A DNA stretch of 64,000 nucleotides from a virus (IMGVR_UViG_3300025096_000004:96001-160000), one strand, 5' to 3'. Counted from the first letter of the stretch, positions 10,711 to 29,519 are shown. The notes: generated by a model from the letters alone, not told the origin. Numbers and translations: made by a program.

Positions 10711-10728
10711 TTTAAATCGTGTTATAAT
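10700..10728 (+). promoter_or_regulatory. Sigma70-type promoter (TTGACA-17-TATAAT, extended -10 TG)
   Basis: TTGACA 10700-10705, 17 nt spacer, TG at 10720-21, TATAAT 10723-10728; ATG follows 6 nt later. Confidence 0.85.
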
Positions 10729-10734
10729 ATAAAT

Positions 10735-11268: not shown

Positions 11269-11286
11269 TGGCAACTGTGTTATATT
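11258..11286 (+). promoter_or_regulatory. Sigma70-type promoter (TTGACA-17-TATATT, extended -10 TG)
   Basis: TTGACA 11258-11263, 17 nt spacer, TG at 11278-79, TATATT 11281-11286; primase ATG follows 6 nt later. Confidence 0.8.
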
Positions 11287-11292
11287 ATTATT

Positions 11293-12461: not shown

Positions 12462-15400
12462 GATAGCTCACTTGGGTGATACCCACATAAGGAACTTGAA
12501 ATATCATCAGGAATACCGGATAATATTCAAGGAACTTTATAAAAAACTCAAAGCGGATAAGCCGGATTATATCGTTCACTGCGGCGATATAGCACATACT
12601 AAAACGCAGTTAAGTCCAGAGTATTTTCAATTAGCCTCCGAGTTCCTCTCGGAGCTTTCTGCTATTGCGCCATTGATTGTCATCCTTGGTAACCACGATG
12701 GCAATTTGAAAAACGAAAGTAGAGAAGACGCAATTACACCAATCGTTAATGCACTGGAGAATCCACAAATCACTCTTTTGAAGGATTCTGGAGAGTATTC
12801 ACCCGAAACCGGTCTAACATTTAATGTTTTGAGCGTTTTCGACAGAGAGAATTGGATCAAGCCGTCATCGGACCAATCAATCAACATAGCTCTATATCAT
12901 GGCTCAATTAGCGGTTGTTTGACCGATACCGGCTGGATTATGTCTCATGGCGAGGATGAAGCAACCATATTTAACGATCATGATTATGCTCTTCTCGGAG
13001 ACATTCACAAGCCTCAGTTTCTCGACTCCAAGCGCAAGGTTGGCTATTGTGGCTCAACCGTTCAGCAGAACTTCGGCGAAGACCAGAACAAGGGCTATAT
13101 GATATGGGAGATCAAAGATAAAGATAATCATGTGGTCTCGCACCATTCGCTCTACCATCCAAAGCCATTTATTACGGTGACTCTTAACACTGACGGGACT
13201 CTACCAGAAGCAGACGTTCCAAAGTATTGCAGACTTCGCTTGGTTACCCCACGAAACCTTCCAATTAGCCAACTTCGGAAAGCCTCTGACATGGCTAGGG
13301 TAAAGTGGCGTCCGTATAGTGTTGCGTTCTTAAACCGTGGAAATGCAACAACTTCTGGGCAAAACTCGGCATCTGCTAACATCACCGAGAATCTCCGAGA
13401 CCTGAAGGTTCAAGAGAAGCATATTCGAGAATACCTCAAGGACTACAACCTTGATGAGGTCATTATCCAAGAGGTGCTTGATCACAATCTCAAATATAAT
13501 CGACTGGCAACTGAGAACGAAGAGATAAGCCGCAATGTTGTATGGCGTGTAAAAGAGATAGAATGGGACAATCTATTCAACTATGGTGGAGGCAATAAAG
13601 TAAATTTTGACAAACTAAGGGGTCTCGTTGGAATTTTTGGAAAAAACTATTCCGGCAAGTCATCGATTATTGATTCGATCTTGTTCACAATGTTTAATTC
13701 AACTTCAAAGGGCGAGCGCAAAAACGTTCATATTATAAATCAAAATAAACAATCAGCAAAGTCTAAGATAAAGATCGAGATTGGTAATGAGTTAGTTGAA
13801 ATATCTCGTAACCTTAATAAGTACGAGAAGAGGTTAAAGGGAAAAGTTACGACAGAGGCAAAAACAGATTTAAACTTTCACAATCATACACTGGGCGAAT
13901 CTATTAATGGCACTTCTCGAAATGAAACTGATGCCAACATCCGCAAAAAGATAGGCACTTTGGATGACTTCCTTTTAACATCAATGGCTTCACAACTTGA
14001 TTCTCTTGCTTTTGTTAAAGAGGGTTCGACCAAACGGAAAGAGATACTTGCAAAGTTTTTGGATCTTGAACTGTTTGACAAGAAGTTTAAATCGGCGAAA
14101 AAAGATGCTTCTGATATGAAGGCTGTGCTTAAGAGGCTGCAAAACAAATCATGGGCTGTTGAGATTGAAAATTCGAAAGCGGCAATGGAACAAATCGGCG
14201 AAGAGGTTGAACAAAAGTCTGCAAAATGCAAAGAACTTAATTCAGTATTGACACGTCGACAGGCAGAGTTAATAGAATTAGAAAAACAAATAGATTCGGT
14301 TCCTGTGGAGCCAATTAACATTGCTGAGATTCAAGGAAAAATACAACAGTTTGAATTCGAGATCCAAGAGAATATAAGAAAGAAACTGGAATACAGAGGC
14401 CGCGCCAAACAAAATGAAGAGCTTGCTGATGAATTAGAAATAGAACTCAAAAACATACCACTTGATAAATTGCAAAAGTTAAAAGAGCGATCATTGGAAT
14501 TAAGTGAAGAAAGGAGAAAAAAACACTCAAAGCACAAATTGTTAAATTCTCAAATTGCAAATTTAGAAAAAAAGCTTGAAATGCTTGAGGGCCACAAATA
14601 TGATCCAAATTGTAAGTATTGTACCGATAACAAGTTTGTTAAGGATGCAAAGGCAGCGCTGGATAGTTTGCCCCAATTGAGAGAGAAAGAGCTAGAACTT
14701 GCTGAAATAGTACAAGGTTTGACCGAAAAACTATCAATTATGGACATATCTGAGATAGAAGAGCGAATTCAAAAATGTGACAAGATCCAAGTAAAAATTG
14801 ATAAATCAAAAGCAGATGCTAAACATCTTCGACATAAGGTTGAAAAGTGTGATCTCACAAACGAGCGCATTAAATCTGATCTTATAGATTTAAGACGTAA
14901 AGAGTCGCTGTATGAAGAGAACAAAGAAACAATTGAGAACCTTGGTACTTTATGCAAGGAACAGATATCTCTTAAAAAGATGATATATAAGAAGCAAGTT
15001 GATTTGGATAATTGCAATTCTAGATTGCAACTCCTTTATATTGATCAAGGCTCGGAGACCACAATATTAAAAAATCTAAAAGAGAACCAACAAGAGCTTG
15101 AAAAAATGGAAAGACAATGGACAGCTTATGATTTGTATATGCAATGCATGCACCCCAATGGTATTCCATATAATATTATTAAACAATCGCTTCCTCTGAT
15201 CAACGAAGAGATAGCAAAGGTATTGGCGAACATTGTCGAATTTGAAACATTTTTTGACAATACCGATGGCAAGCTCGACATTTATATCAAACATCCAAAT
15301 TATGATCCTCGACCTTTATCAATGGGATCGGGAGCAGAGAAGACAATCGCTGCAATGGCAATACGCCTAGCTCTGATTTCAATAACGAATTTACCAAAAT

Positions 15401-15597
15401 CCGAACTATTTATACTTGACGAACCAGCAACAGCTTTAGACCAAGAACATATGGAAGGTTTTATAAGGCTTTTGGATATGATTAAGAATCAATTCAAGAT
15501 CGTTATTCTGATCTCCCACTTGGACTCTCTTAAAGATGTTGTTGATATGACGATTGACATTCAAAAAAATGGCGACTATGCCAAAGTGAGGATTTAA
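12454..15597 (+). CDS. Fused SbcD/Mre11 nuclease - SbcC/Rad50 ATPase (T4 gp47-gp46-like)
   Basis: Metallophosphoesterase motifs GDTH, GDIAH, GNHD, LYHG, GDIH; Walker A GKNYSGKS; long coiled coil with CKYC hook (14611-14622); Walker B/D-loop ILDEPATALD; H-loop ISH. Confidence 0.9.
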   Translation: MFKIAHLGDTHIRNLKYHQEYRIIFKELYKKLKADKPDYIVHCGDIAHTKTQLSPEYFQLASEFLSELSAIAPLIVILGNHDGNLKNESREDAITPIVNALENPQITLLKDSGEYSPETGLTFNVLSVFDRENWIKPSSDQSINIALYHGSISGCLTDTGWIMSHGEDEATIFNDHDYALLGDIHKPQFLDSKRKVGYCGSTVQQNFGEDQNKGYMIWEIKDKDNHVVSHHSLYHPKPFITVTLNTDGTLPEADVPKYCRLRLVTPRNLPISQLRKASDMARVKWRPYSVAFLNRGNATTSGQNSASANITENLRDLKVQEKHIREYLKDYNLDEVIIQEVLDHNLKYNRLATENEEISRNVVWRVKEIEWDNLFNYGGGNKVNFDKLRGLVGIFGKNYSGKSSIIDSILFTMFNSTSKGERKNVHIINQNKQSAKSKIKIEIGNELVEISRNLNKYEKRLKGKVTTEAKTDLNFHNHTLGESINGTSRNETDANIRKKIGTLDDFLLTSMASQLDSLAFVKEGSTKRKEILAKFLDLELFDKKFKSAKKDASDMKAVLKRLQNKSWAVEIENSKAAMEQIGEEVEQKSAKCKELNSVLTRRQAELIELEKQIDSVPVEPINIAEIQGKIQQFEFEIQENIRKKLEYRGRAKQNEELADELEIELKNIPLDKLQKLKERSLELSEERRKKHSKHKLLNSQIANLEKKLEMLEGHKYDPNCKYCTDNKFVKDAKAALDSLPQLREKELELAEIVQGLTEKLSIMDISEIEERIQKCDKIQVKIDKSKADAKHLRHKVEKCDLTNERIKSDLIDLRRKESLYEENKETIENLGTLCKEQISLKKMIYKKQVDLDNCNSRLQLLYIDQGSETTILKNLKENQQELEKMERQWTAYDLYMQCMHPNGIPYNIIKQSLPLINEEIAKVLANIVEFETFFDNTDGKLDIYIKHPNYDPRPLSMGSGAEKTIAAMAIRLALISITNLPKSELFILDEPATALDQEHMEGFIRLLDMIKNQFKIVILISHLDSLKDVVDMTIDIQKNGDYAKVRI

Positions 15598-15852
15598 ATG
15601 ATGAGTGAAAGCGAAAGAGAAAGTCTGGTCGAGGACATTAAAAAAGAATTGTACCTTGACAACAAAGACAAAGGCATGTTAGATGCCATTCAAGAGAAGA
15701 TGATAAGCAGAAAGCTTTTGGTTTTCTTAACTGCAACTGGCCTTATGTATTGGTCAGATCTTGACCCTGAAACTTGGGGTATGATTGCTGTTATGTATAT
15801 TACTGGACAATCTGTTATTGATGCAGTTAAAGCATGGAAATGGGGCTCCTAA
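15598..15852 (+). CDS. Small membrane protein, holin-like
   Basis: 84 aa with two hydrophobic segments (KLLVFLTATGLMYW; TWGMIAVMYITGQSVI). Confidence 0.5.
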   Translation: MMSESERESLVEDIKKELYLDNKDKGMLDAIQEKMISRKLLVFLTATGLMYWSDLDPETWGMIAVMYITGQSVIDAVKAWKWGS

Positions 15853-15855
15853 TCA

Positions 15856-16257
15856 ATGTGGTGGCTTGCAGCTAAAAAGTGGCTCAAGATATCTGCTATA
15901 TGGTGCAGGCAACACTGGCGATGGGTCGTTTTAGGCGGCTTTGCGCTAGTGATGTATTATTTTGGGAGAAAGGCCTCTAAAGCCCAACTGATTCAAGCCA
16001 AGCTTGCTCTTAAATCATATGAAGCCGAAAAAGCTGCAATTGAGCGAGCCCATGCAAAAGAAGTCGAAGATATAAAAAAAGCACAGGCTAATTACTCTAA
16101 AGCTTTGGCACACATAAGCCAAAGATATTCTGGAGAGACCAATTCTTTAAAAATCAAAGAAGAGAAGAAGATTCGAGATATGATCAAGAAAGCTAAGGAT
16201 GATCCTGAAGAAGTTGATAGGATCTTAGAACAAGAACTGGGAATTAAAAAAATATGA
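15856..16257 (+). CDS. N-terminally anchored coiled-coil membrane protein (i-spanin-like topology)
   Basis: WVVLGGFALVMYYF hydrophobic segment followed by an Ala/Lys/Glu helical region. Confidence 0.5.
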   Translation: MWWLAAKKWLKISAIWCRQHWRWVVLGGFALVMYYFGRKASKAQLIQAKLALKSYEAEKAAIERAHAKEVEDIKKAQANYSKALAHISQRYSGETNSLKIKEEKKIRDMIKKAKDDPEEVDRILEQELGIKKI

Positions 16258-16424
16258 AAATCGATATTAAAACAATGATGTCTATCTTGGCAGCATCCGC
16301 CATCCTCGGCGGTTTTTATTATACAACTCAACATCGGCTTGATCTTCTTGAGGCAGACATTGCAGACCTTGAGACTGAAATTACGAAGGTCCGCAAAATT
16401 GCAAACAGGAAAAACAAACAATGA
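16254..16424 (+). CDS. Small TM + coiled-coil protein (56 aa), not in ORF track
   Basis: MKIDIKTMMSILAASAILGGFYYTTQHRLDLLEADIADLETEITKVRKIANRKNKQ. ATGA overlaps at both ends fill the gap between neighbours exactly. Confidence 0.75.
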   Translation: MKIDIKTMMSILAASAILGGFYYTTQHRLDLLEADIADLETEITKVRKIANRKNKQ

Positions 16425-17233
16425 AATTATCAAAAGAGCAGCTTAACCATATTATCAAAGAAGAACTACAGGGACAGATTCAGGATATAAAAGCAAAATT
16501 GATGACTATCGATGCCTCGGGAGATCCGAATGCTAAGGGTTGGAAATATTGGAAATATGCAGGTAGCGGCCCAAGTGATTTCGAAATAGTAGATAGCTAT
16601 CTTAAAGCATCCGGTGAGCCCGGTCTTTCAAGCCCCGACACTGATCGAACCCCAAGCGAAGAGGAAGAACAGCAATGGGGGAATTCAATGGATGATGTAT
16701 TCGCGTCTATGCATACCAAATTGAACAAAGAATCCAAACAAATGAAATTAACAAAAGAACAACTTGCAAATATCATCAAAGATGAACTTGCGAAGACACT
16801 AAAAGAATATGGCCCATTTGGTTCTGCGATGGAACATTCTCTTTACGACAAGGTCAAATCAAACATTCAAAGGATTTCCCATGATGGATCCAAAGGTCTG
16901 GAAGTTCGGAAACATGTAACATTGTTGCAGAAACTGGAAGACAGCAGTTGGGACCCTGATGAATTCAACAACCCAGAGACAGCACACGGAGTGTGGACGG
17001 ATGTTTTTATGGACACCATGAATGATACCTATTGGGATGGCAAACAAGAAGTTGATATTAGATTTTCAACACCGGAAATAGAGGAAATGTGTCCTGACTG
17101 CGGCCCCGTCTGGGACCAAGTGGTGAGAGATAACGGAATGGACGGCCCCGGCTACGGCTCAGAACAAGAACCATGGTCCGACATCGTCGACGCTGTGAAA
17201 GAGAAGAACCCACAATATAAGGATTTTGAATAA
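16421..17233 (+). CDS. Putative internal head protein with two MKL.KEQL..IIK.E leaders
   Basis: Leader at residue 1 (MKLSKEQLNHIIKEEL) and again in frame at 16742 (MKLTKEQLANIIKDEL); acidic body. Confidence 0.65.
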   Translation: MKLSKEQLNHIIKEELQGQIQDIKAKLMTIDASGDPNAKGWKYWKYAGSGPSDFEIVDSYLKASGEPGLSSPDTDRTPSEEEEQQWGNSMDDVFASMHTKLNKESKQMKLTKEQLANIIKDELAKTLKEYGPFGSAMEHSLYDKVKSNIQRISHDGSKGLEVRKHVTLLQKLEDSSWDPDEFNNPETAHGVWTDVFMDTMNDTYWDGKQEVDIRFSTPEIEEMCPDCGPVWDQVVRDNGMDGPGYGSEQEPWSDIVDAVKEKNPQYKDFE

Positions 17234-17490
17234 TGAAACTAACAAAAGAACAACTTGCGAAGATTATTAAAGAAGAGATAGGACAGATGGCAGAAGCTGG
17301 CCGCTATGGCCTTGGTTCACAAAGGCCCGATTCCTCTTTCAATGAATTGCCCGATGAACCAACAACAATGTCGGGAGCCGAATCAGCAAATGATTTGCGA
17401 ACAGCTATTGCACAGTTTGTCGCAGACAATCCACAACTCTCAGACCCCAAAGCAACAATCATGGCTATTATAGATGAGGCATTGAGATAA
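17233..17490 (+). CDS. Putative internal head protein (MKLTKEQLAKIIKEE leader)
   Basis: 85 aa; shared leader; TAATG coupling. Confidence 0.7.
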   Translation: MKLTKEQLAKIIKEEIGQMAEAGRYGLGSQRPDSSFNELPDEPTTMSGAESANDLRTAIAQFVADNPQLSDPKATIMAIIDEALR

Positions 17491-17535
17491 GGTGAAGCTA
17501 ACAAAAGAACAACTTGCGAAGATTATTAAAGAAGA
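17239..17535 (+). repeat. 38-nt exact direct repeat (17239-17276 and 17498-17535) encoding the shared leader
   Basis: ctaacaaaagaacaacttgcgaagattattaaagaaga occurs at both positions; a diverged copy is at 16742 onward. Confidence 0.9.
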
Positions 17536-17905
17536 ATATGCCAATGTTAAAGAATCGTGGCAACAAAAGATGTTCGGCGGAGAAGAGGAAATAATTCCAC
17601 CATCCGAACCCGCCCCCGCTTCTAAAGAATCTGAGAGTTGGAAGACTCTCGAAAGACTTGTGAGAGCTACCAACAAAGAATTTCCTGAATTGAATTTGGG
17701 CTTCCCTCTGCTTCGTAAATTTTACAAACTACACCGAGCCCATGGCCGCCAAGATATAGGATGGAGATTGCCAAAGATCACACAAATCATTCCAATGGAA
17801 GGTGGCCGATACGACATAGTATTCGCCGATGGCACCCAAGAAGTGTATCAAGATCGCTTTACTGACAGGGGCCACCGTGGAAGCGCTTTCCGAAGTACTT
17901 ATTAG
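17492..17905 (+). CDS. Putative internal head protein (MKLTKEQLAKIIKEE leader, GTG start)
   Basis: 137 aa; shared leader. Confidence 0.65.
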   Translation: MKLTKEQLAKIIKEEYANVKESWQQKMFGGEEEIIPPSEPAPASKESESWKTLERLVRATNKEFPELNLGFPLLRKFYKLHRAHGRQDIGWRLPKITQIIPMEGGRYDIVFADGTQEVYQDRFTDRGHRGSAFRSTY

Positions 17906-17952
17906 ATGAGCTTCGAGGTCATAAAAGAAAAAAATCTTTTTGAAAAAATATG

Positions 17953-17981
17953 TTGCACAAATCGTATAACCATGTTATATT
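17953..17981 (+). promoter_or_regulatory. Sigma70-type promoter (TTGCAC-17-TATATT, extended -10 TG)
   Basis: TTGCAC 17953-17958, 17 nt spacer, TGn + TATATT 17976-17981, in an AT-rich intergenic gap. Confidence 0.65.
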
Positions 17982-18022
17982 ATTATTATTACTTAAATTG
18001 TCTAATGTATAGAGGAGGATAG

Positions 18023-18448
18023 ATGAAAAGTTTTGTTTTAGCGTTCTTATTGGTTTACTCGCCACCTGCCAACGCAGAAGAGCCGGTGTTCACCCCACTT
18101 AAAAAAGGTCAAAAAGCCCCTTTCGATGGGAGGTTGTTTAATAACGCAGCCGTTTCTAAATTCATTATAGAAGACAGGCTAAAGGTCGAACAGTGTAATG
18201 TTCAAATCGAATATGAAGTTGGAAAAGCAAATGCCGCCTCAAAATATCAATTTGATCTCCATTCAGCAAAGTGTGAAGCTGACGACCACAGACTTCAAGA
18301 TATGATAGCCATTCGAGACGACGAGATAAAGTTTTTGAGAAAGTCATATGAGCCCCCGAAACACCAATGGTGGCTCGCCGGTGGATTTGTGGTTGGAGCA
18401 GCCTCCGCCATCGGCATCATGTATGCTGTTGCTCCGGGACTACGATGA
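18023..18448 (+). CDS. Exported protein with signal peptide and C-terminal TM helix
   Basis: AGGAGG SD; MKSFVLAFLLVYSPPANA signal-peptide-like start; helical middle; WWLAGGFVVGAASAIGIMYAV at the C-terminus. Confidence 0.65.
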   Translation: MKSFVLAFLLVYSPPANAEEPVFTPLKKGQKAPFDGRLFNNAAVSKFIIEDRLKVEQCNVQIEYEVGKANAASKYQFDLHSAKCEADDHRLQDMIAIRDDEIKFLRKSYEPPKHQWWLAGGFVVGAASAIGIMYAVAPGLR

Positions 18449-18822
18449 AGGAAAAAGATCCCAACTATGTTGCAAAGGTGGAACAAGCCATAGCGAAGAA
18501 ATATGGCGAAGAAACAATTCAACACCCAAAGAAAGATTGGACGAATGAAAAAGAAAAGGAATACCTTGAGCAACAAAAACAATTACACTTCAAAGATATT
18601 CAAGAAGAAGATATTGACAAAGTTCAAGTAAATGGAGTTTTTGTTCCCAAAAAACTAATTAAGAAGAACTCTAATCGTTCTTGTCCCGTTTGTAATATAT
18701 ATTCATTCAAGTCAAACGATGATGTGTATATGTCAAAGTTTGAGTGTTGTGAAAAGTGTTATATCCAATGGGTCGAAGGTCGAGAAGAACGTTGGAAAAC
18801 CGGATGGAGACCAAATAACTAA
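18445..18822 (+). CDS. Zn-finger-containing hypothetical protein (125 aa)
   Basis: Start reassigned to the ATGA overlap at 18445; CPVC..CCEKC cysteine cluster. Confidence 0.65.
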   Translation: MKEKDPNYVAKVEQAIAKKYGEETIQHPKKDWTNEKEKEYLEQQKQLHFKDIQEEDIDKVQVNGVFVPKKLIKKNSNRSCPVCNIYSFKSNDDVYMSKFECCEKCYIQWVEGREERWKTGWRPNN

Positions 18823-19295
18823 TGGCAACAAAAGTAACAGCATCAACTTTAAAAGTATCTGTTAAAGAGGAAATCACTCTTAACGGCAAGAAACATGAAT
18901 ACCGCCATGAGCAGTCCATTGCTGATATCAATATGATTTCACAGCGAATTGTGAGAGTTCCGTACACTGGTACTGAAATAATTTTATCATTTGGAAGTGC
19001 GATTGGTGCCGGCACATATATTGCAGGAGACGTAAAGTATATTCGCGTAACAAATTTAGATGATGCTAATTTTGTTAAATTGGGACTACTTGATTCCGGC
19101 GCTGGTGATCGAGCTTATTTTAAACTTGAAAAGGGCGATACTATGATTTTTCACAATACAAAATTAGAGGCAAAAGCAGATACTAGCGGTGCATGGGTTG
19201 CTTTTGCGGATATTGAATCAATTAACGCGATAGCAGATTCCACCCTCGCCATCCCCGTCGATATAGAAGTTTTCGTTGCATCAAGTCAAAGTTAA
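18822..19295 (+). CDS. Hypothetical protein (157 aa, beta-rich, probably structural)
   Basis: TAATG coupled ORF; no catalytic motif recognised. Confidence 0.6.
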   Translation: MATKVTASTLKVSVKEEITLNGKKHEYRHEQSIADINMISQRIVRVPYTGTEIILSFGSAIGAGTYIAGDVKYIRVTNLDDANFVKLGLLDSGAGDRAYFKLEKGDTMIFHNTKLEAKADTSGAWVAFADIESINAIADSTLAIPVDIEVFVASSQS

Positions 19296-19309
19296 GGAGA
19301 AACTAAATA

Positions 19310-19861
19310 ATGGCTAATTCAGAAATGTTAAAAGTAGTACAAGGACTGGCACAAGCCGTCTCCGATATTAAAGCAAACGGTCACGATGAACGTTACGCTT
19401 ATGATGGCGAAGCTCGCACAGTTGGTCTCAAAAGAGAAGAGGGAGACATTATTCTTGATAAAAGAGTTAATGATGGTTTTACTGTTAAATTTGTGGGCCA
19501 TATGCTTTGCATTCACTATCAAGCTGACATTATGTTAAAAGATATTTATGGTGGCAAGTTTGAAAATGAAATGCAACTTATGATCAATCAAGTTAAAAAG
19601 GCAATTCAAAAAGAATATAAAAAGGTTACTGGCGATTCAGTCACTTTAACTGGCGTTGACGAACCATATATTTTGGCTTCTTCAGTATCAAGGGTTCGCT
19701 CCTTTGTCCAAGCTCATCAATATTTTAAAATTTCTGGAATCAAAGAAAACGAGTATACTGGTGGCTCCGAAGATCGAAAAATTGAAGACTCATGGCGAAA
19801 ATTTTTAGACCTTGATAATAAAAATAAGCGACCACCCAACGACACAAGACCAAAATCATGA
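19310..19861 (+). CDS. Hypothetical protein upstream of terminase
   Basis: AAGGAG SD; 183 aa; C-terminal EDSWRKFL motif. Confidence 0.65.
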   Translation: MANSEMLKVVQGLAQAVSDIKANGHDERYAYDGEARTVGLKREEGDIILDKRVNDGFTVKFVGHMLCIHYQADIMLKDIYGGKFENEMQLMINQVKKAIQKEYKKVTGDSVTLTGVDEPYILASSVSRVRSFVQAHQYFKISGIKENEYTGGSEDRKIEDSWRKFLDLDNKNKRPPNDTRPKS

Positions 19862-19870
19862 TGAGAGATT

Positions 19871-21454
19871 ATGGCCTATCAACCTTCAAAACAAGAAATT
19901 GTAAAAGAGATTCTTAAATCAGGCAAAGATCCTGTTTATTTTATTAATAATTATTGTCGCATCTCGCACCCTATGAGGGGCTTGATCTCTTTTAAGACAT
20001 ATCCTTATCAAGATGATTTGCTTAATGATTTTAATGATTACCGCTTCAGCATTATTTTAAAAGCCCGCCAGCTAGGAATTTCAACCATTACTGCTGCTTA
20101 TTGCGTTTGGATGATGCTGTTTCATAGAGATAAGAATGTTCTTGTAATGGCAACCAAATTCGGAACAGCATCAAACTTGGTTAAAAAAGTTAAGGCGATG
20201 ATGAAGAACCTTCCTCCTTGGATTCGCATTTCCAACATTAAGGTGGATAATCGATCTTCATTCGAGCTTCACAATGGGTCTCAAATTAAAGCAACATCAA
20301 CATCCGGTGATGCGGGTCGTTCCGAAGCGCTCTCTCTGTTAGTGATTGATGAGGCTGCCCATGTGGACGGGCTAGATGAATTATGGACTGGTCTTTATCC
20401 TACACTATCAACAGGCGGCAGGTGTATTGCCCTATCAACACCCAATGGGGTCGGTAATTGGTTCCACAAGACTTATGTCGACGCTGATAATATGGAAAAC
20501 GATTTTCATCCAATCAACTTGGCGTGGGACGTACATCCTGAACGCGATAGGGTTTGGTTTGAAAAAGAGACAAAAAATATGTCTCGGAGACAAATTGCTC
20601 AAGAGTTGGAGTGTAACTTTAACACATCAGGAGATACAGTGATCCATCCCGATGATTTAGCTAGATTGAACGCCGCAACTAAAGAGCCAAATTATAGAGT
20701 CGGCCACGACAGAAATTTTTGGCTTTGGGAGAAGTTCGCCGAAAACTTTACTTATCTTATGGTCGCCGACGTAGCCCGAGGTGATGGTTCAGACTCTTCA
20801 ACCTTTCATATCTTGAAGCTAGAAACAATGGAGGTGGTGGCTGAATATCAAGGAAAACCCAGTCTTGATCTATATTCAAATATATTGTTTCAAGCTGGTC
20901 ATGAATATGGAAAGTGTTTGCTAGTGGTTGAAAACAATGGAATAGGCATTTCAATTCTCGAGAAGCTTATAGATTTAGGATATCCAAATTTATATTATTC
21001 CATAAAAGGGACTCACGAGTTTGTTGATTCGATACAGGGCGAAGTAAACAATAGAGCCCTTCCGGGGTTCACAACCTCAACCAAGACCCGCCCATTGATT
21101 GTGGCAAAATTAGAAGAGTTCATAAGGAATGGACTAATTACTTTATATTCTAGTAGGTTGTTTCATGAACTTAAGACATTTATTTGGCATAACGGTAAAC
21201 CACAAGCGATGCGTTCCTATCATGATGATTTGGTGATGTCATTGGCGATAGCTTGTTGGGTTAGGGATACAGCCCTACAGACAAGCCAAAAAGATGTTCA
21301 ATACAAAAAAGCAATGCTTGACGGTATGTTCATGAAAACTACACAAATGAGTACCACAATTGAAGGAATGGAAGGGCATAAAAAATCTTTTGATGAGAAA
21401 TACGAAGAACAACAGAAGCAAGCAACTGATTTTGCTTGGATTTTTAAAGGATAA
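19871..21454 (+). CDS. terL: Terminase large subunit (T4 gp17-like)
   Basis: LKARQLGIST Walker A, VIDEAAHV Walker B, STPNG motif, VADVARGDGSDSS and HDDLVMSLAIA nuclease Asp motifs. Confidence 0.95.
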   Translation: MAYQPSKQEIVKEILKSGKDPVYFINNYCRISHPMRGLISFKTYPYQDDLLNDFNDYRFSIILKARQLGISTITAAYCVWMMLFHRDKNVLVMATKFGTASNLVKKVKAMMKNLPPWIRISNIKVDNRSSFELHNGSQIKATSTSGDAGRSEALSLLVIDEAAHVDGLDELWTGLYPTLSTGGRCIALSTPNGVGNWFHKTYVDADNMENDFHPINLAWDVHPERDRVWFEKETKNMSRRQIAQELECNFNTSGDTVIHPDDLARLNAATKEPNYRVGHDRNFWLWEKFAENFTYLMVADVARGDGSDSSTFHILKLETMEVVAEYQGKPSLDLYSNILFQAGHEYGKCLLVVENNGIGISILEKLIDLGYPNLYYSIKGTHEFVDSIQGEVNNRALPGFTTSTKTRPLIVAKLEEFIRNGLITLYSSRLFHELKTFIWHNGKPQAMRSYHDDLVMSLAIACWVRDTALQTSQKDVQYKKAMLDGMFMKTTQMSTTIEGMEGHKKSFDEKYEEQQKQATDFAWIFKG

Positions 21455-21458
21455 ATAA

Positions 21459-23411
21459 ATGGCGAAAAATAACAAAAACCCATATAATAATGAATCAGAT
21501 TTATTCAGATCACTGACTAGATTGTTTTCTGGGCCCATCTTGAACAGAAGAACCCAAACTGGCCGACAGTTGCGTCGGAGACATTTGGATGTCTATTCTA
21601 AATGGTTTAAGTCTGCTTCAGGAAGACAGTTCAAGAAAGCAGAATACAACCCAATGAATATAACTTCTGCCAACATGATTTCAAATCGAAATAGATCAGA
21701 ACGATATGTTGACTTTGACCAAATGGAGTATATGCCAGAGATTGCATCGTCATTGGATATTTACGCAGATGAGATGACAACTCATTCTGATTTGCAACCA
21801 ATGCTCAAGATTAAATGCCCAAACGAAGAAATTAAATCAATTCTTCAGGCTCTTTATCATAATGTGCTTAACGTTGAATATAATTTATTTGGTTGGTCTC
21901 GTACAATGTGTAAATATGGAGATTTGTTTTTATATATGGAACTCGATGAATCTCTTGGAGTCAAGAATGTTATCGGACTCCCACAACAAGAAGTCGAGCG
22001 CTTAGAGGGCGAGGATATGTCAAATCCGAACTATGTCCAATTCCAATGGAACTCCGGCGGCCTTACTCTTGAAAACTGGCAAGTAGCTCATTTTCGAGTT
22101 TTGGGACATGATAAACATGCTCCATATGGAACATCAGTTCTTGAAGGCGCCCGCCGAATCTGGCGACAATTAACTCTTTTAGAAGATGCAATGATGGCTT
22201 ATCGTATTGTACGCTCTCCAGAGCGCCGTGTGTTTTATATTGACGTTGGTGCCATTGCTCCTCAAGATGTTGAACAATATATGCAAAAGGTTATGACCCA
22301 AATGAAGCGTCATCAGGTTGTTGATCCAACAACCGGCAAGATTGATCTTCGCTATAACCCGCTTTCAATTGAGGAAGATTACTATATTCCGGTTCGTGGC
22401 ACTTCAAATACCAAGATTGAAAACCTCCAAGGTGGCCAATTCACTGGAACTGTCGAGGATGTAAAATATTTAAGAGATAAATTATTTGCTGCTCTCAAAG
22501 TGCCCCAATCTTACTTGACTATGGGCGAAGGCGCCACCGAAGACAAGACCACCCTTGCTCAAAAGGACGTTCGCTTTGCCAGAACCATCCAACGCCTCCA
22601 GCGCGTTGTGACCTCGGAGCTTGAAAAGATAGGAATTATTCACTTATATACTCTTGGGTTCCGAGGTGATGATCTTTTATCATTTAAGCTTGGATTGAAC
22701 AACCCTTCTAAAATTGCAGAACTTCAGGAACTTGAACATTGGAAACAGAAATTTGATGCCGCCGGAGCCGCGACCGAAGGGTTCTTTTCAAAGCGCTGGA
22801 TTGCCGAAAATATGCTTGGCATTTCTGAAGATGAATTTCTTAGAAACCAAAGGGAGATGTTCTTTGATAAGAAGTTTATGGCAAGCCTTGAAGCTTCCGC
22901 CGAAGGTGCCGCCGCAGAAGGCGGTGAAGGTGGAGGATTGGGCGAACTCGGCGATCTGGGGGGTGAAGGTGGAGAAGAAGGAGACCTCGGCGACCTCGGC
23001 GATTTGGGCGATGAAGGGGAAGAGGCTGGTGGAGAAGAAGCCACAGCCGCCGATGAAAAGGAATCGCCCTTGCTGGCTGAACCGCCGGGAAAAAGAGACG
23101 ATAGTCAATATGGCATCCGCAACAAAGGGGGAACCTCAAAGAGAATTAAGAGCGAAGCAGGTATAACCAGAGACGCCATCAGGGCCACTCCAAGAACAAT
23201 TAATCCGGGCTGGAAGGGAGACCATGGTATGAATCCCCTTGCCAATATGTCGAAAAGTTATGTCACTTCCGGACCAATGGGAATTATGTTTGAGCAAAAA
23301 ACTGTTGACAATGATTTGTTGGAAGAACAAAAACTATTTAGTGTAAATAATGAAATAGAACACCTTTTAAAAAGTCTAAAGGAGAAGAAAAAATATGAAG
23401 ATGAAACATAA
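21459..23411 (+). CDS. gp20: Portal protein (T4 gp20-like) with acidic C-terminal extension
   Basis: EIASSLDIYADE, YGTSVLEGARRIWRQLTLLEDAMMAYRIVRSPERRVFYIDVG, EDYYIPVRG and ALKVP motifs; directly after terL. Confidence 0.93.
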   Translation: MAKNNKNPYNNESDLFRSLTRLFSGPILNRRTQTGRQLRRRHLDVYSKWFKSASGRQFKKAEYNPMNITSANMISNRNRSERYVDFDQMEYMPEIASSLDIYADEMTTHSDLQPMLKIKCPNEEIKSILQALYHNVLNVEYNLFGWSRTMCKYGDLFLYMELDESLGVKNVIGLPQQEVERLEGEDMSNPNYVQFQWNSGGLTLENWQVAHFRVLGHDKHAPYGTSVLEGARRIWRQLTLLEDAMMAYRIVRSPERRVFYIDVGAIAPQDVEQYMQKVMTQMKRHQVVDPTTGKIDLRYNPLSIEEDYYIPVRGTSNTKIENLQGGQFTGTVEDVKYLRDKLFAALKVPQSYLTMGEGATEDKTTLAQKDVRFARTIQRLQRVVTSELEKIGIIHLYTLGFRGDDLLSFKLGLNNPSKIAELQELEHWKQKFDAAGAATEGFFSKRWIAENMLGISEDEFLRNQREMFFDKKFMASLEASAEGAAAEGGEGGGLGELGDLGGEGGEEGDLGDLGDLGDEGEEAGGEEATAADEKESPLLAEPPGKRDDSQYGIRNKGGTSKRIKSEAGITRDAIRATPRTINPGWKGDHGMNPLANMSKSYVTSGPMGIMFEQKTVDNDLLEEQKLFSVNNEIEHLLKSLKEKKKYEDET

Positions 23412-24210
23412 TAAGAAAAGAAATACCGCTTTTCTTTACGAGTCTTTGGTTAAAGAGTTAACAAAAGCAATAGTCAGAAAACAACATGTTAGAAAAAAAC
23501 AAGTTGTTGAGATTATAAAAAAATATTTTAATAATAACTCTGTGCTTAAAGAGGAATTAGATATTTATAATTCTTTAATTGCAACCGGCTCTTTAAATAA
23601 AGAATATAGTTTGCGACTTATGCATGAAAGTAAAAAGGACTATGATTTGCTTGACAAAAAGAAAATCTTTAACATGCAAACAAGCTTGATTAAAGAGATT
23701 AATGAATCACTATCCAATCAAGTATTCGCAAACTTTATTTCAAACTATCGTCAACTTGCTAATATTGGACAATTTTTTGATTCTAACAATTTGAATGCAA
23801 AACAAAGAATTTTGGTTGAATCAAAGGTTGTTGGAATGTTGATAAATAAGAAGAAAGAGACCAAAGATATGAAGCATATTGATAATTTAACTTACAACAC
23901 TTTTGTGAATAAATTTAACAGAACCTATGAGTCATCGCTGAGAAAAGAGCAGAAAGATTTGTTAACAAATTACATTACGTCTTTTTCTGACAACGGCCTT
24001 GGGCTGAAGTCTTTTCTTAATGAGGAGATTGGACGTCTAAAGGTGGTTCTGAATGCTGCTGCCTCTAAATCAAATATTGATCGGCAACTTGCCGAGAACA
24101 CAAAAAAAGTTATAATAAAATTGGAATCATTTTCTAAAAAGCAAATAACTGAACAACTGGTTAGAGATATATTTTATATTCAAGACCTAGCTTATGAGGT
24201 GAATAAGTAA
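23395..24210 (+). CDS. Hypothetical head-module protein (MKMKHNKKRNT N-terminus)
   Basis: 271 aa helical ORF between portal and protease. Confidence 0.65.
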   Translation: MKMKHNKKRNTAFLYESLVKELTKAIVRKQHVRKKQVVEIIKKYFNNNSVLKEELDIYNSLIATGSLNKEYSLRLMHESKKDYDLLDKKKIFNMQTSLIKEINESLSNQVFANFISNYRQLANIGQFFDSNNLNAKQRILVESKVVGMLINKKKETKDMKHIDNLTYNTFVNKFNRTYESSLRKEQKDLLTNYITSFSDNGLGLKSFLNEEIGRLKVVLNAAASKSNIDRQLAENTKKVIIKLESFSKKQITEQLVRDIFYIQDLAYEVNK

Positions 24211-24812
24211 TGACCATCAATGTTAAAATTACCAATGATCAGCCCGAAGAGGATTCCAATAAGGTGAACGTCAAGATCAAAAAATCTGATGAAATACAGG
24301 TTGAGATCGTAAAAGAAGACCCTCCAATATCGTTTAAGTTAAATGCTCGCAAAGCAATGAATGGAGATATTATGATTTTTGATCATGCTGATATCGACAT
24401 CATCATTTTAACAGAAAAGAAAAAAGTTGTCGCCTTTGCAAAAGAAATCATGAGCGATATTGTTTATGGTGCTGAATCGAGATTATTTGAATATTTGCGC
24501 AAACGAGGTATCGTTGCTTTTGACTCAATACAGGGCGGCAATGTTTATGGATCCCTTGAGGCGAAAATACATGAATCAACAGAGTTCGACCCAATTAAGA
24601 TGACATTACTTAATGTATCTAAATGGATGGATGACGAACGCCCCTATTTTGAATCATTAAAGGCTCATGATGAAATGATGGACGATGCAATTTTGGAACC
24701 AGATGTGGAAAATTCAACAGAACTTGGCGAAGTTCCCCATGAAGAAGAGAAGGGTTCGATTTTGCAGCATAATTTGTTTGCACCATACTTGTACGGGAGA
24801 TACACATACTAA
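24210..24812 (+). CDS. Hypothetical head-module protein
   Basis: 200 aa; TAATG coupling. Confidence 0.65.
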   Translation: MTINVKITNDQPEEDSNKVNVKIKKSDEIQVEIVKEDPPISFKLNARKAMNGDIMIFDHADIDIIILTEKKKVVAFAKEIMSDIVYGAESRLFEYLRKRGIVAFDSIQGGNVYGSLEAKIHESTEFDPIKMTLLNVSKWMDDERPYFESLKAHDEMMDDAILEPDVENSTELGEVPHEEEKGSILQHNLFAPYLYGRYTY

Positions 24813-25156
24813 TGAAAATAACACAAAAACAACTTAGAAAGATTATAAAAGAGGAAGTTGAAGAGACCATGAAAGAATATGGTTCTGATAAAAGAAGTAT
24901 TCCAAAGCAAGCTTGGTTAAAAGCCATTTCTGATGCCAACATGACGGATCAAAACCACCGCCCAATAGGCGAACAGACGTTAAATAATTATGGATATTAT
25001 TATCAGCCAAATCGCGACATTGGAGACTCTCGGTGGACCGGCGCCTTTTATAAACCTTACGATGCAATGGCGGATAGCGGAGGTATTTATGCTGAAAATT
25101 GGGCCGACAAGGCCATTAAAGCAGCAATGGAAATGTCTGGCGATGTTGTCGAATAA
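24812..25156 (+). CDS. Putative internal head protein (MKITQKQLRKIIKEE leader)
   Basis: Leader similar to the 16421-17905 family. Confidence 0.65.
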   Translation: MKITQKQLRKIIKEEVEETMKEYGSDKRSIPKQAWLKAISDANMTDQNHRPIGEQTLNNYGYYYQPNRDIGDSRWTGAFYKPYDAMADSGGIYAENWADKAIKAAMEMSGDVVE

Positions 25157-25172
25157 ACAATAAGAGGTACTA

Positions 25173-25490
25173 ATGGAATTAATTTGGTTTATGTTAGCCG
25201 CTTTTGGCTTAACACAAATTCTTGTATACGGGAAGATTTTTGATAACTATAGGCCAGCCAAAGAACAATACAAAGGATGGGGAGAAGTATTTCATTGTCC
25301 AATGTGTATGGGCTTTTGGACTGGTGTATTTTTATTTTTCATAAATGGTTTCACAGAACTATTTACATTTGATTATAATTTAATTAATATGTTGATATGT
25401 GGATGCACGTCCTCGGGCACGTCTTATATACTTAATATGTTATTTGGAGATTATGGTCTTAATCTAAACATTGGAGATAAAGATGAATAA
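25173..25490 (+). CDS. DUF1360-like membrane protein
   Basis: GAGGT SD; hydrophobic helices around HCPMCMGFW (CxxC..W) typical of DUF1360. Confidence 0.6.
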   Translation: MELIWFMLAAFGLTQILVYGKIFDNYRPAKEQYKGWGEVFHCPMCMGFWTGVFLFFINGFTELFTFDYNLINMLICGCTSSGTSYILNMLFGDYGLNLNIGDKDE

Positions 25491-25548
25491 AGTATGGACA
25501 CAAAAGTGGATGCTTCAACCAGTAAGGCATTGTTGTAAGGGTAGCTGA
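25483..25548 (+). CDS. 21-aa microprotein MNKVWTQKWMLQPVRHCCKGS, not in ORF track
   Basis: GGAG SD at 25473-76, 8-nt overlap with the upstream stop, followed immediately by a terminator. Confidence 0.5.
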   Translation: MNKVWTQKWMLQPVRHCCKGS

Positions 25549-25551
25549 CTC

Positions 25552-25579
25552 AAGCGGGTAGCGCCCGCTTTTTATTTTT
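25552..25579 (+). terminator. Rho-independent terminator
   Basis: aagcggg-tagcg-cccgctt hairpin followed by a T-rich run. Confidence 0.75.
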
Positions 25580-25592
25580 AAGGAATTAACAG

Positions 25593-25949
25593 ATGAAATT
25601 GACAAAAGCCAGACTTAAACAGATAATTTTAGAAGAAATTAACGAAATGCGTGTCACGGATATTGCCGGCGATGATGAGGATCGTGCAATTGATGCACAC
25701 CGCCGCGCCAAGAGAGCCCGTGGCGAATATCCCCGCCGACCAACTGGTGGATATGAAGATACTCGATGCCCTGCCGAAATTGAACAAGCTCGCAAGGAAG
25801 GAATGGTCGAGGCCACAAGAAATATTTTAGAAATGTTCCCCGGCGGCGGCCTTATGGTAGATCAAAATACATATAATGCTATTCAAGAAATGGCCCCTGA
25901 ACTGCTTGACAGAATATCGGTCACCCGATCACGACGAAGAGAACAATAA
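25593..25949 (+). CDS. Putative internal head protein (MKLTKARLKQIILEE leader)
   Basis: AAGGA SD; shared leader type; coupled by TAATG to the prohead protease. Confidence 0.65.
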   Translation: MKLTKARLKQIILEEINEMRVTDIAGDDEDRAIDAHRRAKRARGEYPRRPTGGYEDTRCPAEIEQARKEGMVEATRNILEMFPGGGLMVDQNTYNAIQEMAPELLDRISVTRSRRREQ

Positions 25950-26560
25950 TGTCAAAAAAGCTTTTAACAGAATATTTTGAATTGTGTCCCGATGGTGCAT
26001 GTCTCGATCTTTTGAACGAAAGAGAAAAGAAAGAGGTCATGGAAGGTGGTATGTATTTAACAGGCCGCATTCAGTCCGCTGATGTTAAAAACGGCAACGG
26101 ACGAAAGTATCCTGAAAAAGTCTTAAGACGAGAAATGGAGAATTATATGAACGTTGTTCGAGACAATAGGGCTACCGGAGAATTGGATCATCCTGATGAT
26201 TCTGTTATTAATTTAAAGAATGTATCTCACATGATTACAGACATCTGGTGGAAGGGAAAAGATGTAATGGGCAAAATCAAAGTTCTTAATACACCATCCG
26301 GCAGAATATTAAAAGATCTTGTAAATGCTGGTGTAAAAATTGGCATTTCTTCTAGAGGTCTTGGTTCTGTCAAAGAACAGATGGGGGAATCGATTGTGGA
26401 AGATGATTTTCAACTAATCTGTTTTGATATTGTATCAGAACCATCCACACCAAATGCTTATGTTTTCCCCAAATCAGATCAGCAGCGCTTCAAGATGGCT
26501 GTGCGCGAAGGAAAAGAAAACAGTATCAACAATTTATTTAAAAAAATATTGAGGGATTAA
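25949..26560 (+). CDS. gp21: Prohead core protease (T4 gp21-like)
   Basis: NGNGRKYP, GELDHP, VSH, GISSRGLGSV and FDIVSEPSTPNAY motifs. Confidence 0.93.
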   Translation: MSKKLLTEYFELCPDGACLDLLNEREKKEVMEGGMYLTGRIQSADVKNGNGRKYPEKVLRREMENYMNVVRDNRATGELDHPDDSVINLKNVSHMITDIWWKGKDVMGKIKVLNTPSGRILKDLVNAGVKIGISSRGLGSVKEQMGESIVEDDFQLICFDIVSEPSTPNAYVFPKSDQQRFKMAVREGKENSINNLFKKILRD

Positions 26561-26563
26561 AAA

Positions 26564-27562
26564 ATGAGCTATTCAAGTGATAAAAAACATAAGTTAATGT
26601 TTGAGAGTTGGAGAAAATTTGTCTCCGAAGAGGCAGATCCAAAGAAAATGTCTGGAGAGGATTTTCCAATGAAACTTGGCGATGTGGGTTCAAAATATAC
26701 ACCCCAACAGGCTAAAAAAATTGCAGTAGGTGGACTTAAGGATGGAGATAAATCAGACGATATTATTAATGCCAAGCCCGGCGGAGGTCCAGTTTCTAAA
26801 CTGAAGCCCTCTCAATCATCAATGAATATCGGAAAAGCTGTTGCTTTTGCAATAGCAGCGATTCTTGAAAACGAACCTTTTCCAACAGGTCCCGGGGGCG
26901 ATTTGGGAGCAATTATAACCAGTGATAATCATATTATGGATGGCCACCATCGTTGGATCGCTAGTGGAATGATCGACCCATCTGCTAAAGTTCAAGGATT
27001 TATAGTAGATTATCCCGCGAAACAATTGATTTCTGTTCTAAATGTTCTTACTCTTCACTTTACAAAAAGTCCCAAAGGAAAACCCGGAGGGGGCAGTTTT
27101 AAAGATTTTAATGAAAAGGCAATCGGAGCGGTATTACAAAAATATGCTGCTGATGGGGTGTGGTCCGCTGGTGATGACCCTGCCATGGTTATGAGCGCTT
27201 TGGAACAATTTACAGGACAAACTGGCGAAGCAGCCGTCCCCCTTGCTGCAAAGAAAATGGCCAAAAACGTAAGTCAATTGACACTTTCTGTTCCTTCTGG
27301 TTTTCCACAGAGAGAAGATATGCCTATCATCAGCGCCAAAAAAGGACACTTGGCCTTGGCAGTCAAATTGTTAAACTCCGGCGCTATTGATGTAAATCCA
27401 CAATATGCTGGAGACACCGGTGAGCCCGGCGGAGTCGTTCCTGATTCTGGGGGAACATATGAAAAAGGCTCCCAAGCTGGCGCTGATTCCGATCAAGCCG
27501 AAAGAGAAAGGAAAATGAGAGACCTTGAAGAAAACAGAAAACGACGAAGAAGAAAAAAATGA
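26564..27562 (+). CDS. ParB/Srx-like domain protein with MSYSSDKKHKL..E.WR.F leader
   Basis: LKPSQ and IITSDNHIMDGHHRW ParB N-terminal-like motifs. Confidence 0.65.
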   Translation: MSYSSDKKHKLMFESWRKFVSEEADPKKMSGEDFPMKLGDVGSKYTPQQAKKIAVGGLKDGDKSDDIINAKPGGGPVSKLKPSQSSMNIGKAVAFAIAAILENEPFPTGPGGDLGAIITSDNHIMDGHHRWIASGMIDPSAKVQGFIVDYPAKQLISVLNVLTLHFTKSPKGKPGGGSFKDFNEKAIGAVLQKYAADGVWSAGDDPAMVMSALEQFTGQTGEAAVPLAAKKMAKNVSQLTLSVPSGFPQREDMPIISAKKGHLALAVKLLNSGAIDVNPQYAGDTGEPGGVVPDSGGTYEKGSQAGADSDQAERERKMRDLEENRKRRRRKK

Positions 27563-27609
27563 GCTATTCAAGTGATAAAAAACATAAGTTAATTTTTGAG
27601 AATTGGAGA
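26564..27609 (+). repeat. 5' direct repeat: first 35 nt identical (49/51 nt) at 26564 and 27559
   Basis: atgagctattcaagtgataaaaaacataagttaat starts both genes. Confidence 0.9.
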
Positions 27610-28458
27610 CGGTTTCTAAAAGAAGACGCCATTGACGATTTCATTAAGGGAAGTGGAAAGGGATTGCATGACTATACCGCTATGCTAAAGAGCATCGCCG
27701 GCGACCCTGAATTCCGTAAATTAGCACTTTCGGGCCGTGACGACAGCGCTGGCCCAGCCGATGAATCAATCCAAGTGCATGGCGGTAAGCCGGTACCAGC
27801 CATCGATTTGGTGCCAACTCAATTTGACATTGATACGGAAAAAAGTCTTGGAGATCAAATGGTTAACCGCTTCAACGGAACTGAGTATGCCTTAGAAGAG
27901 GGCTCTCCAATTCTTATGGGCTCTAAGGAGGGAAGAATTCCTGTATTGGTGTTCGACAATAAATATATTTTAGATGGTCACCACCGATGGTCGCAGGTGG
28001 TTATGACAAACCCCGGCGGCATCATGGCAGTTGATAATTTGTCTGCCCCAGCTTTTGGCTCAGGCCAAGAAGGCGCAGAACTTGCTTTAAAGGCAACACA
28101 GTTGGCCATCGCCGGAATCGCCGGAAATGTTGTCACAAATGACACTGATGTTAATCTTTTAGAAGTAGATGTTGCCACTTTGGAAAAATATGTTTTAAGT
28201 AGAATAAGTGATGAAGTTGTGCAAATGCTTTTTAATGCCGAAAAGATACCCAAAGCGGATAAAAGATTGGCTGCCAAAATGTACGGCAAGAATCTTATGT
28301 TGGTCCAAAGAGCACAAAAGGGTAAATTCCAAAGAAAACTTGGCATGCCTCAAGCCGCCGATTCCGGAACTAACCAAGCTAAAGTCAACAAGGCCCTTGA
28401 ACAAGGTCTTGTCAATTTTGATTCCCCTGAGAGAGATGATATAAAGGGCAAAAAATGA
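27559..28458 (+). CDS. ParB/Srx-like domain protein with the same leader
   Basis: LVPTQ and VFDNKYILDGHHRW motifs; ATGA overlap. Confidence 0.65.
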   Translation: MSYSSDKKHKLIFENWRRFLKEDAIDDFIKGSGKGLHDYTAMLKSIAGDPEFRKLALSGRDDSAGPADESIQVHGGKPVPAIDLVPTQFDIDTEKSLGDQMVNRFNGTEYALEEGSPILMGSKEGRIPVLVFDNKYILDGHHRWSQVVMTNPGGIMAVDNLSAPAFGSGQEGAELALKATQLAIAGIAGNVVTNDTDVNLLEVDVATLEKYVLSRISDEVVQMLFNAEKIPKADKRLAAKMYGKNLMLVQRAQKGKFQRKLGMPQAADSGTNQAKVNKALEQGLVNFDSPERDDIKGKK

Positions 28459-28856
28459 ACAAAAATGAATTAAAAAAGATTTTGAAACCTCTGATTAAAC
28501 AGTGCATCAAGGAGGTGATTTTCGAAGACGGCACTCTTTCGAATATCATATCGGAGGTTGCAAAGGGCCTCGGATCTACAACTGTTATTTCCGAGGCTCA
28601 ACCAACTATACAAAAACCAATGCAGCTTGAGTCTGATAGTACAGCAGCAAAGCGTCTAGAAAGGAAAAAACGTATGCTTGATTCTATTGGTAAAGATGCC
28701 TATAACGGCGTTGACTTGTTTGAGGGAACAACCCCAACTACCCAGCCCAAAGAACGGGGCCAAGGTCCCCTTGCAGGAGTAGACCCAAGAGACCCCGGTG
28801 TAGATATATCTAACTTTGGCTCTTTAGGGCACTGGAAGAAGCTGGCAGGAAACTAA
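28455..28856 (+). CDS. Hypothetical head/scaffold-like protein
   Basis: MNKNELKKILKPLIKQCIKEVIFE N-terminus; ends WKKLAGN, like the scaffold's RMRKLAGIK. Confidence 0.65.
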   Translation: MNKNELKKILKPLIKQCIKEVIFEDGTLSNIISEVAKGLGSTTVISEAQPTIQKPMQLESDSTAAKRLERKKRMLDSIGKDAYNGVDLFEGTTPTTQPKERGQGPLAGVDPRDPGVDISNFGSLGHWKKLAGN

Positions 28857-29509: not shown

Positions 29510-29519
29510 GGAGTGAATT

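Follow-up and report, generated by a model that had tools for sequence, protein, structure and literature searches.

The capsid-targeting sequence (CTS) of bacteriophage T4 is the textbook route by which proteins are loaded into a phage head and delivered with the DNA. To our knowledge, the examples on record are a handful of proteins, all from T-even phages. We describe a candidate counterpart in an uncultured marine T4-core myovirus, within a stretch of 64,000 nucleotides of its genome (IMGVR_UViG_3300025096_000004, bases 96001-160000, hereafter the window). It consists of an N-terminal leader peptide, MK(L/I)(T/S)..QL..II.EE, carried by proteins whose bodies are unrelated. Our hypothesis is that this leader is a propeptide, specific to the lineage, which targets proteins to the capsid and is then cut off by the head protease; the evidence presented below makes this likely.

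In T4, the protease gp21 cuts after Glu in L/I-x-E, with documented sites that include ITE-6 and LTE-619 in Alt and LIE-9 in gp21 (PMC5694885, PMC9026906). The T4 head proteins carry N-terminal propeptides of 10-20 residues, which target them to the scaffolding core, and the targeting propeptides of the internal proteins are 10-19 residues long (PMC5694885, PMC9026906). The internal proteins of T-even phages are diverse, and the CTS alone is conserved (PMC3012670); the cargo varies between relatives and the tag is kept (PMC3012670, PMC9026906). A second point of comparison is provided by the giant phages phiKZ, 201phi2-1 and SPN3US, in which a diverged gp21-like protease also cuts after Glu. 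The giant-phage proteases recognize an S/A/G-x-E or A-x-E motif, and the propeptides are mostly longer than 100 residues (PMC5694885). Paralogous head proteins of these phages can share an identical N-terminal stretch with cleavage motifs, and their propeptides carry redundant sites (PMC5694885, PMC9026906).

The leader–cargo system described here resembles that of T4 in having a short N-terminal propeptide on unrelated proteins that ends in hydrophobic-x-Glu, as in IPI, IPII, IPIII and Alt, and in having a gp21-family protease encoded in the same genome. It differs from the giant phages in both the residue at P3, which is Ile or Leu, and the length of the leader (14-24 residues), and thus departs from the phiKZ type. 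The giant phages have families of paralogues, for which no portable short tag has been defined, whereas the bodies here are unrelated. The leader string was not found in the searchable literature, and a literature search found no paper tying the CTS to marine or uncultured phages.

Leader-bearing genes

The window is part of a 191,495-bp IMG/VR virus record with a completeness of 100% and a G+C content of 40.7%, in which the + strand carries nearly all genes. Coordinates are those of the window unless marked as genome. The original prediction, made from the sequence of the window, had placed six leader copies on five genes, and all six were recovered where predicted by a list of open reading frames (ORFs) and a six-frame motif scan, at 16421, 16742, 17233, 17492, 24812 and 25593. 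An independent repeat finder that was blind to protein returned the same leaders as 48-nucleotide copies at 16420, 16741, 17232, 17491, 24811 and 25592 (family D1).

The five ORFs, referred to as genes A to E, lie on the + strand and carry leaders of this type, designated class 1. Gene A (16421-17233, 270 residues) has two leaders in one frame, the first at residues 1-15 and the other at residue 108 (nucleotide 16742), and a 55%-identical homologue of its second half occurs as a separate leader-bearing ORF in the relative contig L004. Gene B (17233-17490, 85 residues) and gene C (17492-17905, 137 residues, GTG start) have nearly identical leader DNA. Gene D (24812-25156, 114 residues) occupies a variable slot amid conserved head-module genes. 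Gene E (25593-25949, 118 residues) overlaps the ATG of the prohead protease gene by one base in a TAATG stop/start, the arrangement described earlier as translational coupling. The claim that the cargo bodies are mutually dissimilar also held, with no similarity found among the five. Their description as small acidic proteins does not fit all of them: the isoelectric points (pI) after removal of 14 residues are 4.5, 4.1, 8.3, 4.7 and 5.3 for A to E, respectively, the predicted mature part of the gene B product being about 7.6 kDa.

When all 3240 six-frame ORFs of the genome were searched with a hidden Markov model (HMM) built from the six copies, these copies had E values of 7e-9 to 2.5e-7, and there were zero matches on the minus strand or in the wrong frame. 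Further class-1 copies were found outside the window, strong at genome 27179 and 29171 and weaker at genome 28357, 41049 and 170843, all on the + strand and all at ORF N-termini. The class-1 total in the genome is about 11 copies. A looser pattern and a second profile revealed a second leader class, KLIMENWR.FL.E, with the length and register of class 1 and 8-9 copies in the genome. Class-2 sites are located at genome 32566, 33252, 38682, 172383, 190163 and 191149, and in the window at 26564 and 27559, each of the latter behind a 9-residue prefix. In either class, residues 12-14 read [LIV]-x-Glu. Together the two classes tag about 19 of the roughly 228 genes in the genome. The original prediction of a distinct targeting code is partly supported, in that all indirect tests that were run fit a capsid-targeting, protease-removed leader, but it understated the copy number, because there is a second leader class, with about 19 tagged genes and thousands of tagged metagenome clusters (see below).

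Leader anatomy and selection on the peptide

The anatomy of the leader was examined in 61 unique class-1 copies from this genome and 21 related IMG/VR contigs. The contigs had been matched by an exact degenerate leader DNA pattern, and all 21 are syntenic with this phage, with 68-90% identity in the large terminase (19871-21454, + strand). Conservation is strong at positions 1-16, weaker at 17-22, and at background from position 23. Residues M1, T4, L8, I12, E14 and E15 are nearly invariant, and I12, E14 and E15 are each present in 60 of the 61 copies. A weaker amphipathic pattern (L16, V19, L20, E22) extends through positions 17-22, and the hydrophobic positions 8, 11, 12, 16, 19 and 20 make an amphipathic face. 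When one member of each of 138 cargo families, covering both classes, was aligned with MAFFT, E14 was the sole invariant column. At the level of sequence, the leader of the 61 copies thus ends in a gp21-type cleavage motif, I-x-E at positions 12-14. Both this motif and the weaker L20-x-E22 fit the specificity of gp21 and would be plausible cleavage sites.

The nucleotide sequence of the leader bears on whether the conserved element acts instead as nucleic acid, with the peptide being incidental. It might then be an RNA site that governs translation initiation or regulation, or a homology patch at which cassettes are exchanged. The almost identical leader DNA of genes B and C, and the swapping of cargo exactly at the leader boundary (see below), are what such a patch would produce, and recombination between leaders probably occurs as a side effect. 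But synonymous positions vary freely at the conserved residues, with 5-6 Leu, 4 Thr and 3 Ile codons in use and variation at Val as well; the peptide is preserved in internal copies that have no start codon; and classes 1 and 2 differ in DNA and have the same [LIV]-x-E register. We therefore regard a role at the nucleic acid level as highly improbable. The leader genes have a Shine–Dalgarno-like GGAG at −13 to −9, which together with the free variation of synonymous codons indicates that these are translated genes and that selection acts on the leader peptide rather than on the DNA or RNA.

AlphaFold2 (AF2) models of two tagged proteins are helical at residues 5-22, followed by a low-confidence hinge, and in one of the two, the model of the gene E product, the leader helix is followed by a dip in confidence at residues 23-25. 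A helix of this kind could in principle be retained, and could serve to oligomerize the proteins or to dock them on a shared partner other than the capsid, namely a complex of the phage or the host, with neither cleavage nor packaging. The modeled helix with its amphipathic face is compatible with this explanation, and so is the location of several enzyme-like tagged genes away from the head module, one of them behind an early-type promoter. It would leave unexplained why I12, E14 and E15 are near-invariant as an I-x-E site with E14 fixed in both classes, why leaders concentrate in the slots flanking the protease gene, and why multi-unit chains delimited by leaders persist. We consider a retained helix unlikely, but it is the principal threat to the capsid reading, most of all where a class-2 leader is carried by an enzyme-like gene that is not part of the head module.

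The head protease and candidate cleavage sites

The gene directly following gene E (25949-26560, + strand) encodes a prohead protease of the T4 gp21 family (Peptidase_S77), which is presumed to remove the leaders, with matches to PF03420 (E 8.7e-36), phrog_207 (E 1.6e-60) and the structure of T4 gp21 (PDB 5JBL, E 3e-22 over residues 22-177). A His in G-E-L-D-H-P and a Ser in I-S-S-R-G, the candidate catalytic residues, stand opposite Ala in the 5JBL chain, which would fit an inactivated crystallized mutant. Its closest cultured match is the protease of Microcystis phage Mel-JY01, with 52% identity, and the gene order terminase-portal-protease-S21-capsid of Mel-JY01 is the same as in this genome.

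Candidate sites for this protease extend beyond the leaders. The protease itself keeps a conserved L-x-E at residues 6-8, and [LI]-x-E likewise occurs at conserved positions near the N-termini of the capsid protein and of conserved head proteins. In the gp23-family major capsid protein (38504-40435, + strand; PF07068, E 2.1e-74), L-R-E|A at residues 57-59 directly precedes the part matched by mature T4 gp23* in an alignment to the PDB entry.

The protease is the only conserved enzyme adjoining the leader genes, which argues against the leader being a recognition sequence for a modifying enzyme, for example a radical S-adenosylmethionine (SAM) enzyme, like those of ribosomally synthesized and post-translationally modified peptides. 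The support for this idea is the general precedent of one enzyme serving many substrates through a common leader. The radical-SAM family PF04055 is absent from the complete genome, in a search that detected all positive controls, and the tagged bodies are proteins of 60-330 residues, some of them enzymes, rather than short peptides. Such a function can hardly be credited.

Turnover of cargo and exchange of leaders

A search with the protease yielded 146 relatives at >=68% identity, of which 80 loci were analyzed. Core head genes (protease, portal, terminase, the genes at 23395, 24210, 25173 and 28455, and S21) recur in 66-80 of the 80 loci. Cargo genes A to E and the class-2 pair that follows the protease gene were found in 1-4 of them, orthologues of gene E occurring only in the four nearest relatives. 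In the slots immediately 5′ and 3′ of the protease gene, almost every real ORF has a leader of class 1 or class 2 at its N-terminus.

In the related IMG/VR material scanned for leaders (about 100 contigs, 1.52 Mb), there were 196 copies of class 1 and 70 of class 2. Each is on the coding strand, and in the loci oriented by the protease gene every copy lies on the protease strand. The 223 distinct bodies fall into 138 BLAST families, including 105 singletons, and have a median length of 128 residues and a median pI of 5.0. Two in-frame leader–cargo units occur in 4 of 262 tagged ORFs, gene A included. As judged by these comparisons, the cargo varies between related phages and the tag is conserved.

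Three cargo families contain orthologues that are 77-90% identical and have a class-1 leader (24 residues) in one phage and a class-2 leader (16 residues) in another. The alignments of these pairs break exactly at the joint of leader and body, which indicates that the two leader classes are modules that can replace one another and do not belong to the fold of the cargo.

The extreme turnover of the bodies also bears on a related explanation, in which targeting and cleavage are real, but the bodies serve as disposable core or filler of the prohead, like T4 gp67, gp68 and gp22. They would be lost at maturation, by degradation or expulsion, rather than delivered as effectors. The position of genes D and E, between the portal and protease genes, is that of the core genes 67 and 68 in T4. 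The bodies are mostly acidic, as scaffolds are, and the conserved head protein encoded at 28455 has a leader-like N-terminus. Scaffold genes are conserved within a lineage, however, whereas the singleton-rich bodies are rarely shared between loci, each window cargo being confined to 1-4 of the 80. A scaffold role would explain the targeting, but not this turnover, nor does it suit the enzyme-like bodies (AAA_33 kinase, nucleotidyltransferase, GNAT and 2H-phosphoesterase-like). Core or filler bodies are thus decidedly unlikely.

Promoter-like motifs

Two classes of promoter-like motif were found in the genome, a sigma-70-like TTGACA-N17-TATATT and ACTA[AT]TTA[TC]. The latter occurs 25 times on the + strand and 0 times on the − strand, mostly 14-55 nucleotides before gene starts, and most copies are in the structural-gene region. 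Its positions in the window are 7294, 15405, 21133, 25358, 37233, 40501, 41681, 42308, 44996, 50509 and 54925. We propose this motif, derived in the present analysis, as a candidate late promoter that is unlike TATAAATA of T4. Use of the T4 late promoter itself was rejected, as its 7 copies on the + strand and 17 copies on the − strand include none before genes.

The nearest upstream promoter-like element is of the late type for 10 of 10 class-1 genes, which form 6 independent units (genome baseline 49%, p 0.013), and for 6 of 8 class-2 genes. For the gene string 15598-17905, which contains genes A to C, this element is the late-type motif at 15405-15413 on the + strand; another on the same strand (25358-25366) lies 226 nucleotides upstream of gene E and the protease gene.

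Distribution and multi-unit chains

A 30-position leader profile was searched against 1.84 billion representative proteins from public metagenomes, and matched 11,750 protein clusters at E <= 0.001. The members examined are all unnamed metagenomic proteins. Among the top 150 matches, a sample biased to multi-copy proteins since scores add up, 146 contain 2-4 leaders per protein, with a median spacing of 148 residues. Of the internal copies in the top matches, 75 of 174 (about 43%) do not have Met at position 1, and because this Met has been lost, these copies are judged to be truly internal. The residues that precede internal copies (E-N-K, E-S-K) resemble translated ribosome-binding sites, which suggests that the chains arose via loss of stop codons between tandem cargo genes. 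Such chains would be tolerable if a protease separates the units. For one multi-leader chain (P0017), no related viral contigs were found.

The exact leader DNA pattern gave 0 matches in 185,579 prokaryote genomes (596 Gb), and by this criterion the leader is restricted to viruses. The leader profile gave nothing convincing in three cultured T4-type phages (Microcystis phage Mel-JY01, Flavobacterium phage immuto and Synechococcus phage S-MbCM7). A tblastn search of cultured phages with the 22-residue consensus gave no match, the query possibly having been filtered as low complexity, and the DNA of 16421-17902 had no match among cultured phages.

Cargo functions and evidence against capsid targeting

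No Pfam or PHROG family was detected above threshold in genes A to E. Weak sub-threshold matches on A and D (TerB_C, Sp-CxC, phrog_7338, Ant) were discarded. The ESM Atlas gave no usable lead for gene A or C, and GGDEF-like Atlas rows were set aside, the predicted local distance difference test (pLDDT) score of the model being 0.46. A Foldseek search with the AF2 model of the gene E product gave no fold match, and no PHROG family gathers leader proteins.

Leads came from the wider set of tagged proteins. A Pfam domain is present in 4 of the 138 cargo families (AAA_33, L5 gp82, cytidylyltransferase-like and GNAT). The slot 5′ of the protease gene encodes an AAA_33/polynucleotide-kinase-like cargo in two relatives (L066:9268-9999, L088:9258-10001), and in three others (L030:7321-7815, L082:9504-9998, L060:9501-9998) a cargo with two invariant H-x-T motifs. 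The top Foldseek matches for the AF2 model of the latter (pLDDT 61) are CNPase-type 2H phosphoesterases (E 0.02). The evidence for a 2H-phosphoesterase-like cargo is weak but concordant. An anti-defence role of the cargos is suggested by analogy with T4 IPI only.

Several observations weigh against the capsid-targeting reading. The cargos of the window gave no functional lead in Pfam, PHROG, the ESM Atlas or Foldseek. The enzyme-like tagged proteins (cytidylyltransferase-like, AAA_33 kinase, GNAT) occur amid nucleotide-metabolism genes, and some class-2 copies are on enzyme-like genes outside the structural region. The class-2 gene at genome 38682 lies 48 nucleotides behind an early-type promoter, one more class-2 gene has an early-type element as its nearest, and the late-promoter assignment itself depends on a motif inferred in this analysis. 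The T4 CTS, MKTYQEFIAE, has only a common format with the leader (MK start, E6, I-x-E end), both peptides being too short for a test of homology. Lastly, Asp replaces Glu at position 14 in two copies, at 16742 in the window and at genome 28357. In T4, Asp at the equivalent position of the CTS blocks processing, not targeting (PMC9026906). By analogy, with Asp14 in its second leader, the gene A product may persist as one uncut two-unit protein.

Other features of the head region

The two class-2 genes follow the protease gene on the + strand. The first (26564-27562, 332 residues) has the motif from residue 9 and V-S-E at residues 20-22, and the second (27559-28458, 299 residues) is its paralogue. 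The two have an identical 9-residue prefix and class-2 leader and a D-G-H-H-R-W motif, and are present in 3 of 80 relatives. The next gene (28455-28856, + strand, 133 residues; in 75 of 80 loci) encodes a conserved head-module protein whose leader-like conserved N-terminus contains I-K-E and I-F-E, and which is a candidate core or scaffold partner. It is followed within the head cluster by a ribosomal protein S21-like gene (28858-29094, 78 residues) that has the same position in 72 of 80 loci, and S21 is annotated at the corresponding place in Mel-JY01. Located 3′ of S21, at 29114-29930, are tandem paralogous small proteins (131 and 136 residues) with the N-terminal sequence V-G-S-Y-Q-V-S-G, present in 53 of 80 relatives.

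The T4 gp20-type portal protein is encoded at 21459-23411 (+ strand; PF07230, E 8.9e-76). Its C-terminal part contains an acidic repeat rich in Gly, Glu, Asp and Leu at 22911-23006, which is also a DNA tandem repeat. Just 5′ of the capsid gene, an acidic scaffold-like protein (37275-38483, + strand) has several [LI]-x-E near its N-terminus and a late-type motif 33 nucleotides upstream.

A third type of N-terminus, the basic MK(I/V)(R/K)I(R/K)(R/K)K, occurs on three large proteins (736, 757 and 489 residues) at genome 30359, 33837 and 37173 (L023:6359-8566, 9837-12107 and 13173-14639), none of which has a Pfam match. Two of the three have L-x-E-A near residue 14, and two of the three have a late-type motif 23-31 nucleotides upstream. 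These three may also be packaged proteins.

Discussion

The leader–cargo system appears to work like the CTS/internal-protein system of T4, which it resembles in every respect that could be tested from sequence. In the proposed mechanism, the leader would form an amphipathic helix of 14-24 residues at the N-terminus of unrelated proteins, or between units, and this helix would dock the protein onto the scaffolding core during head assembly. After closure of the shell, the gp21-type protease would cut after Glu14 (I12-x-E14), freeing the cargo inside the head, and a second cut after Glu22 (L20-x-E22) is probable. By analogy with T4 internal proteins, the freed cargo would go on to enter the host together with the DNA. 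Docking to the core, cleavage, packaging, ejection and the roles of the cargos are our inferences.

The differences from T4 are considerable. The leader is different in sequence and longer (14-24 residues versus 10), and comes in two interchangeable classes. There are about 19 tagged genes per genome, compared with 3-4 in T4, and many of the cargo genes lie within the cluster of head genes. The chains of several units, with leaders in their interior, and the 11,750 tagged metagenome clusters further set the system apart.

More tentatively, and with somewhat less than even confidence, we suggest that the leader is a portable capsid address label used throughout the clade, and that the 11,750 tagged clusters, including the protease-cut chains of 2-4 units, are a catalogue of injected proteins. 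If the capsid-targeting reading is right, the tag would predict virion-packaged, injected proteins directly from metagenomic sequence, which are otherwise invisible without culture and proteomics. It would also provide a second, orthogonal packaging tag for phage engineering. The tagged proteins would be a rich source of candidates in which to look for new functions in anti-defence and host takeover, and on the bolder suggestion much of the catalogue could consist of such functions, of kinds not yet recognized. The logic of the T4 CTS would thus recur in an abundant uncultured marine lineage, with a different and easily searchable tag.

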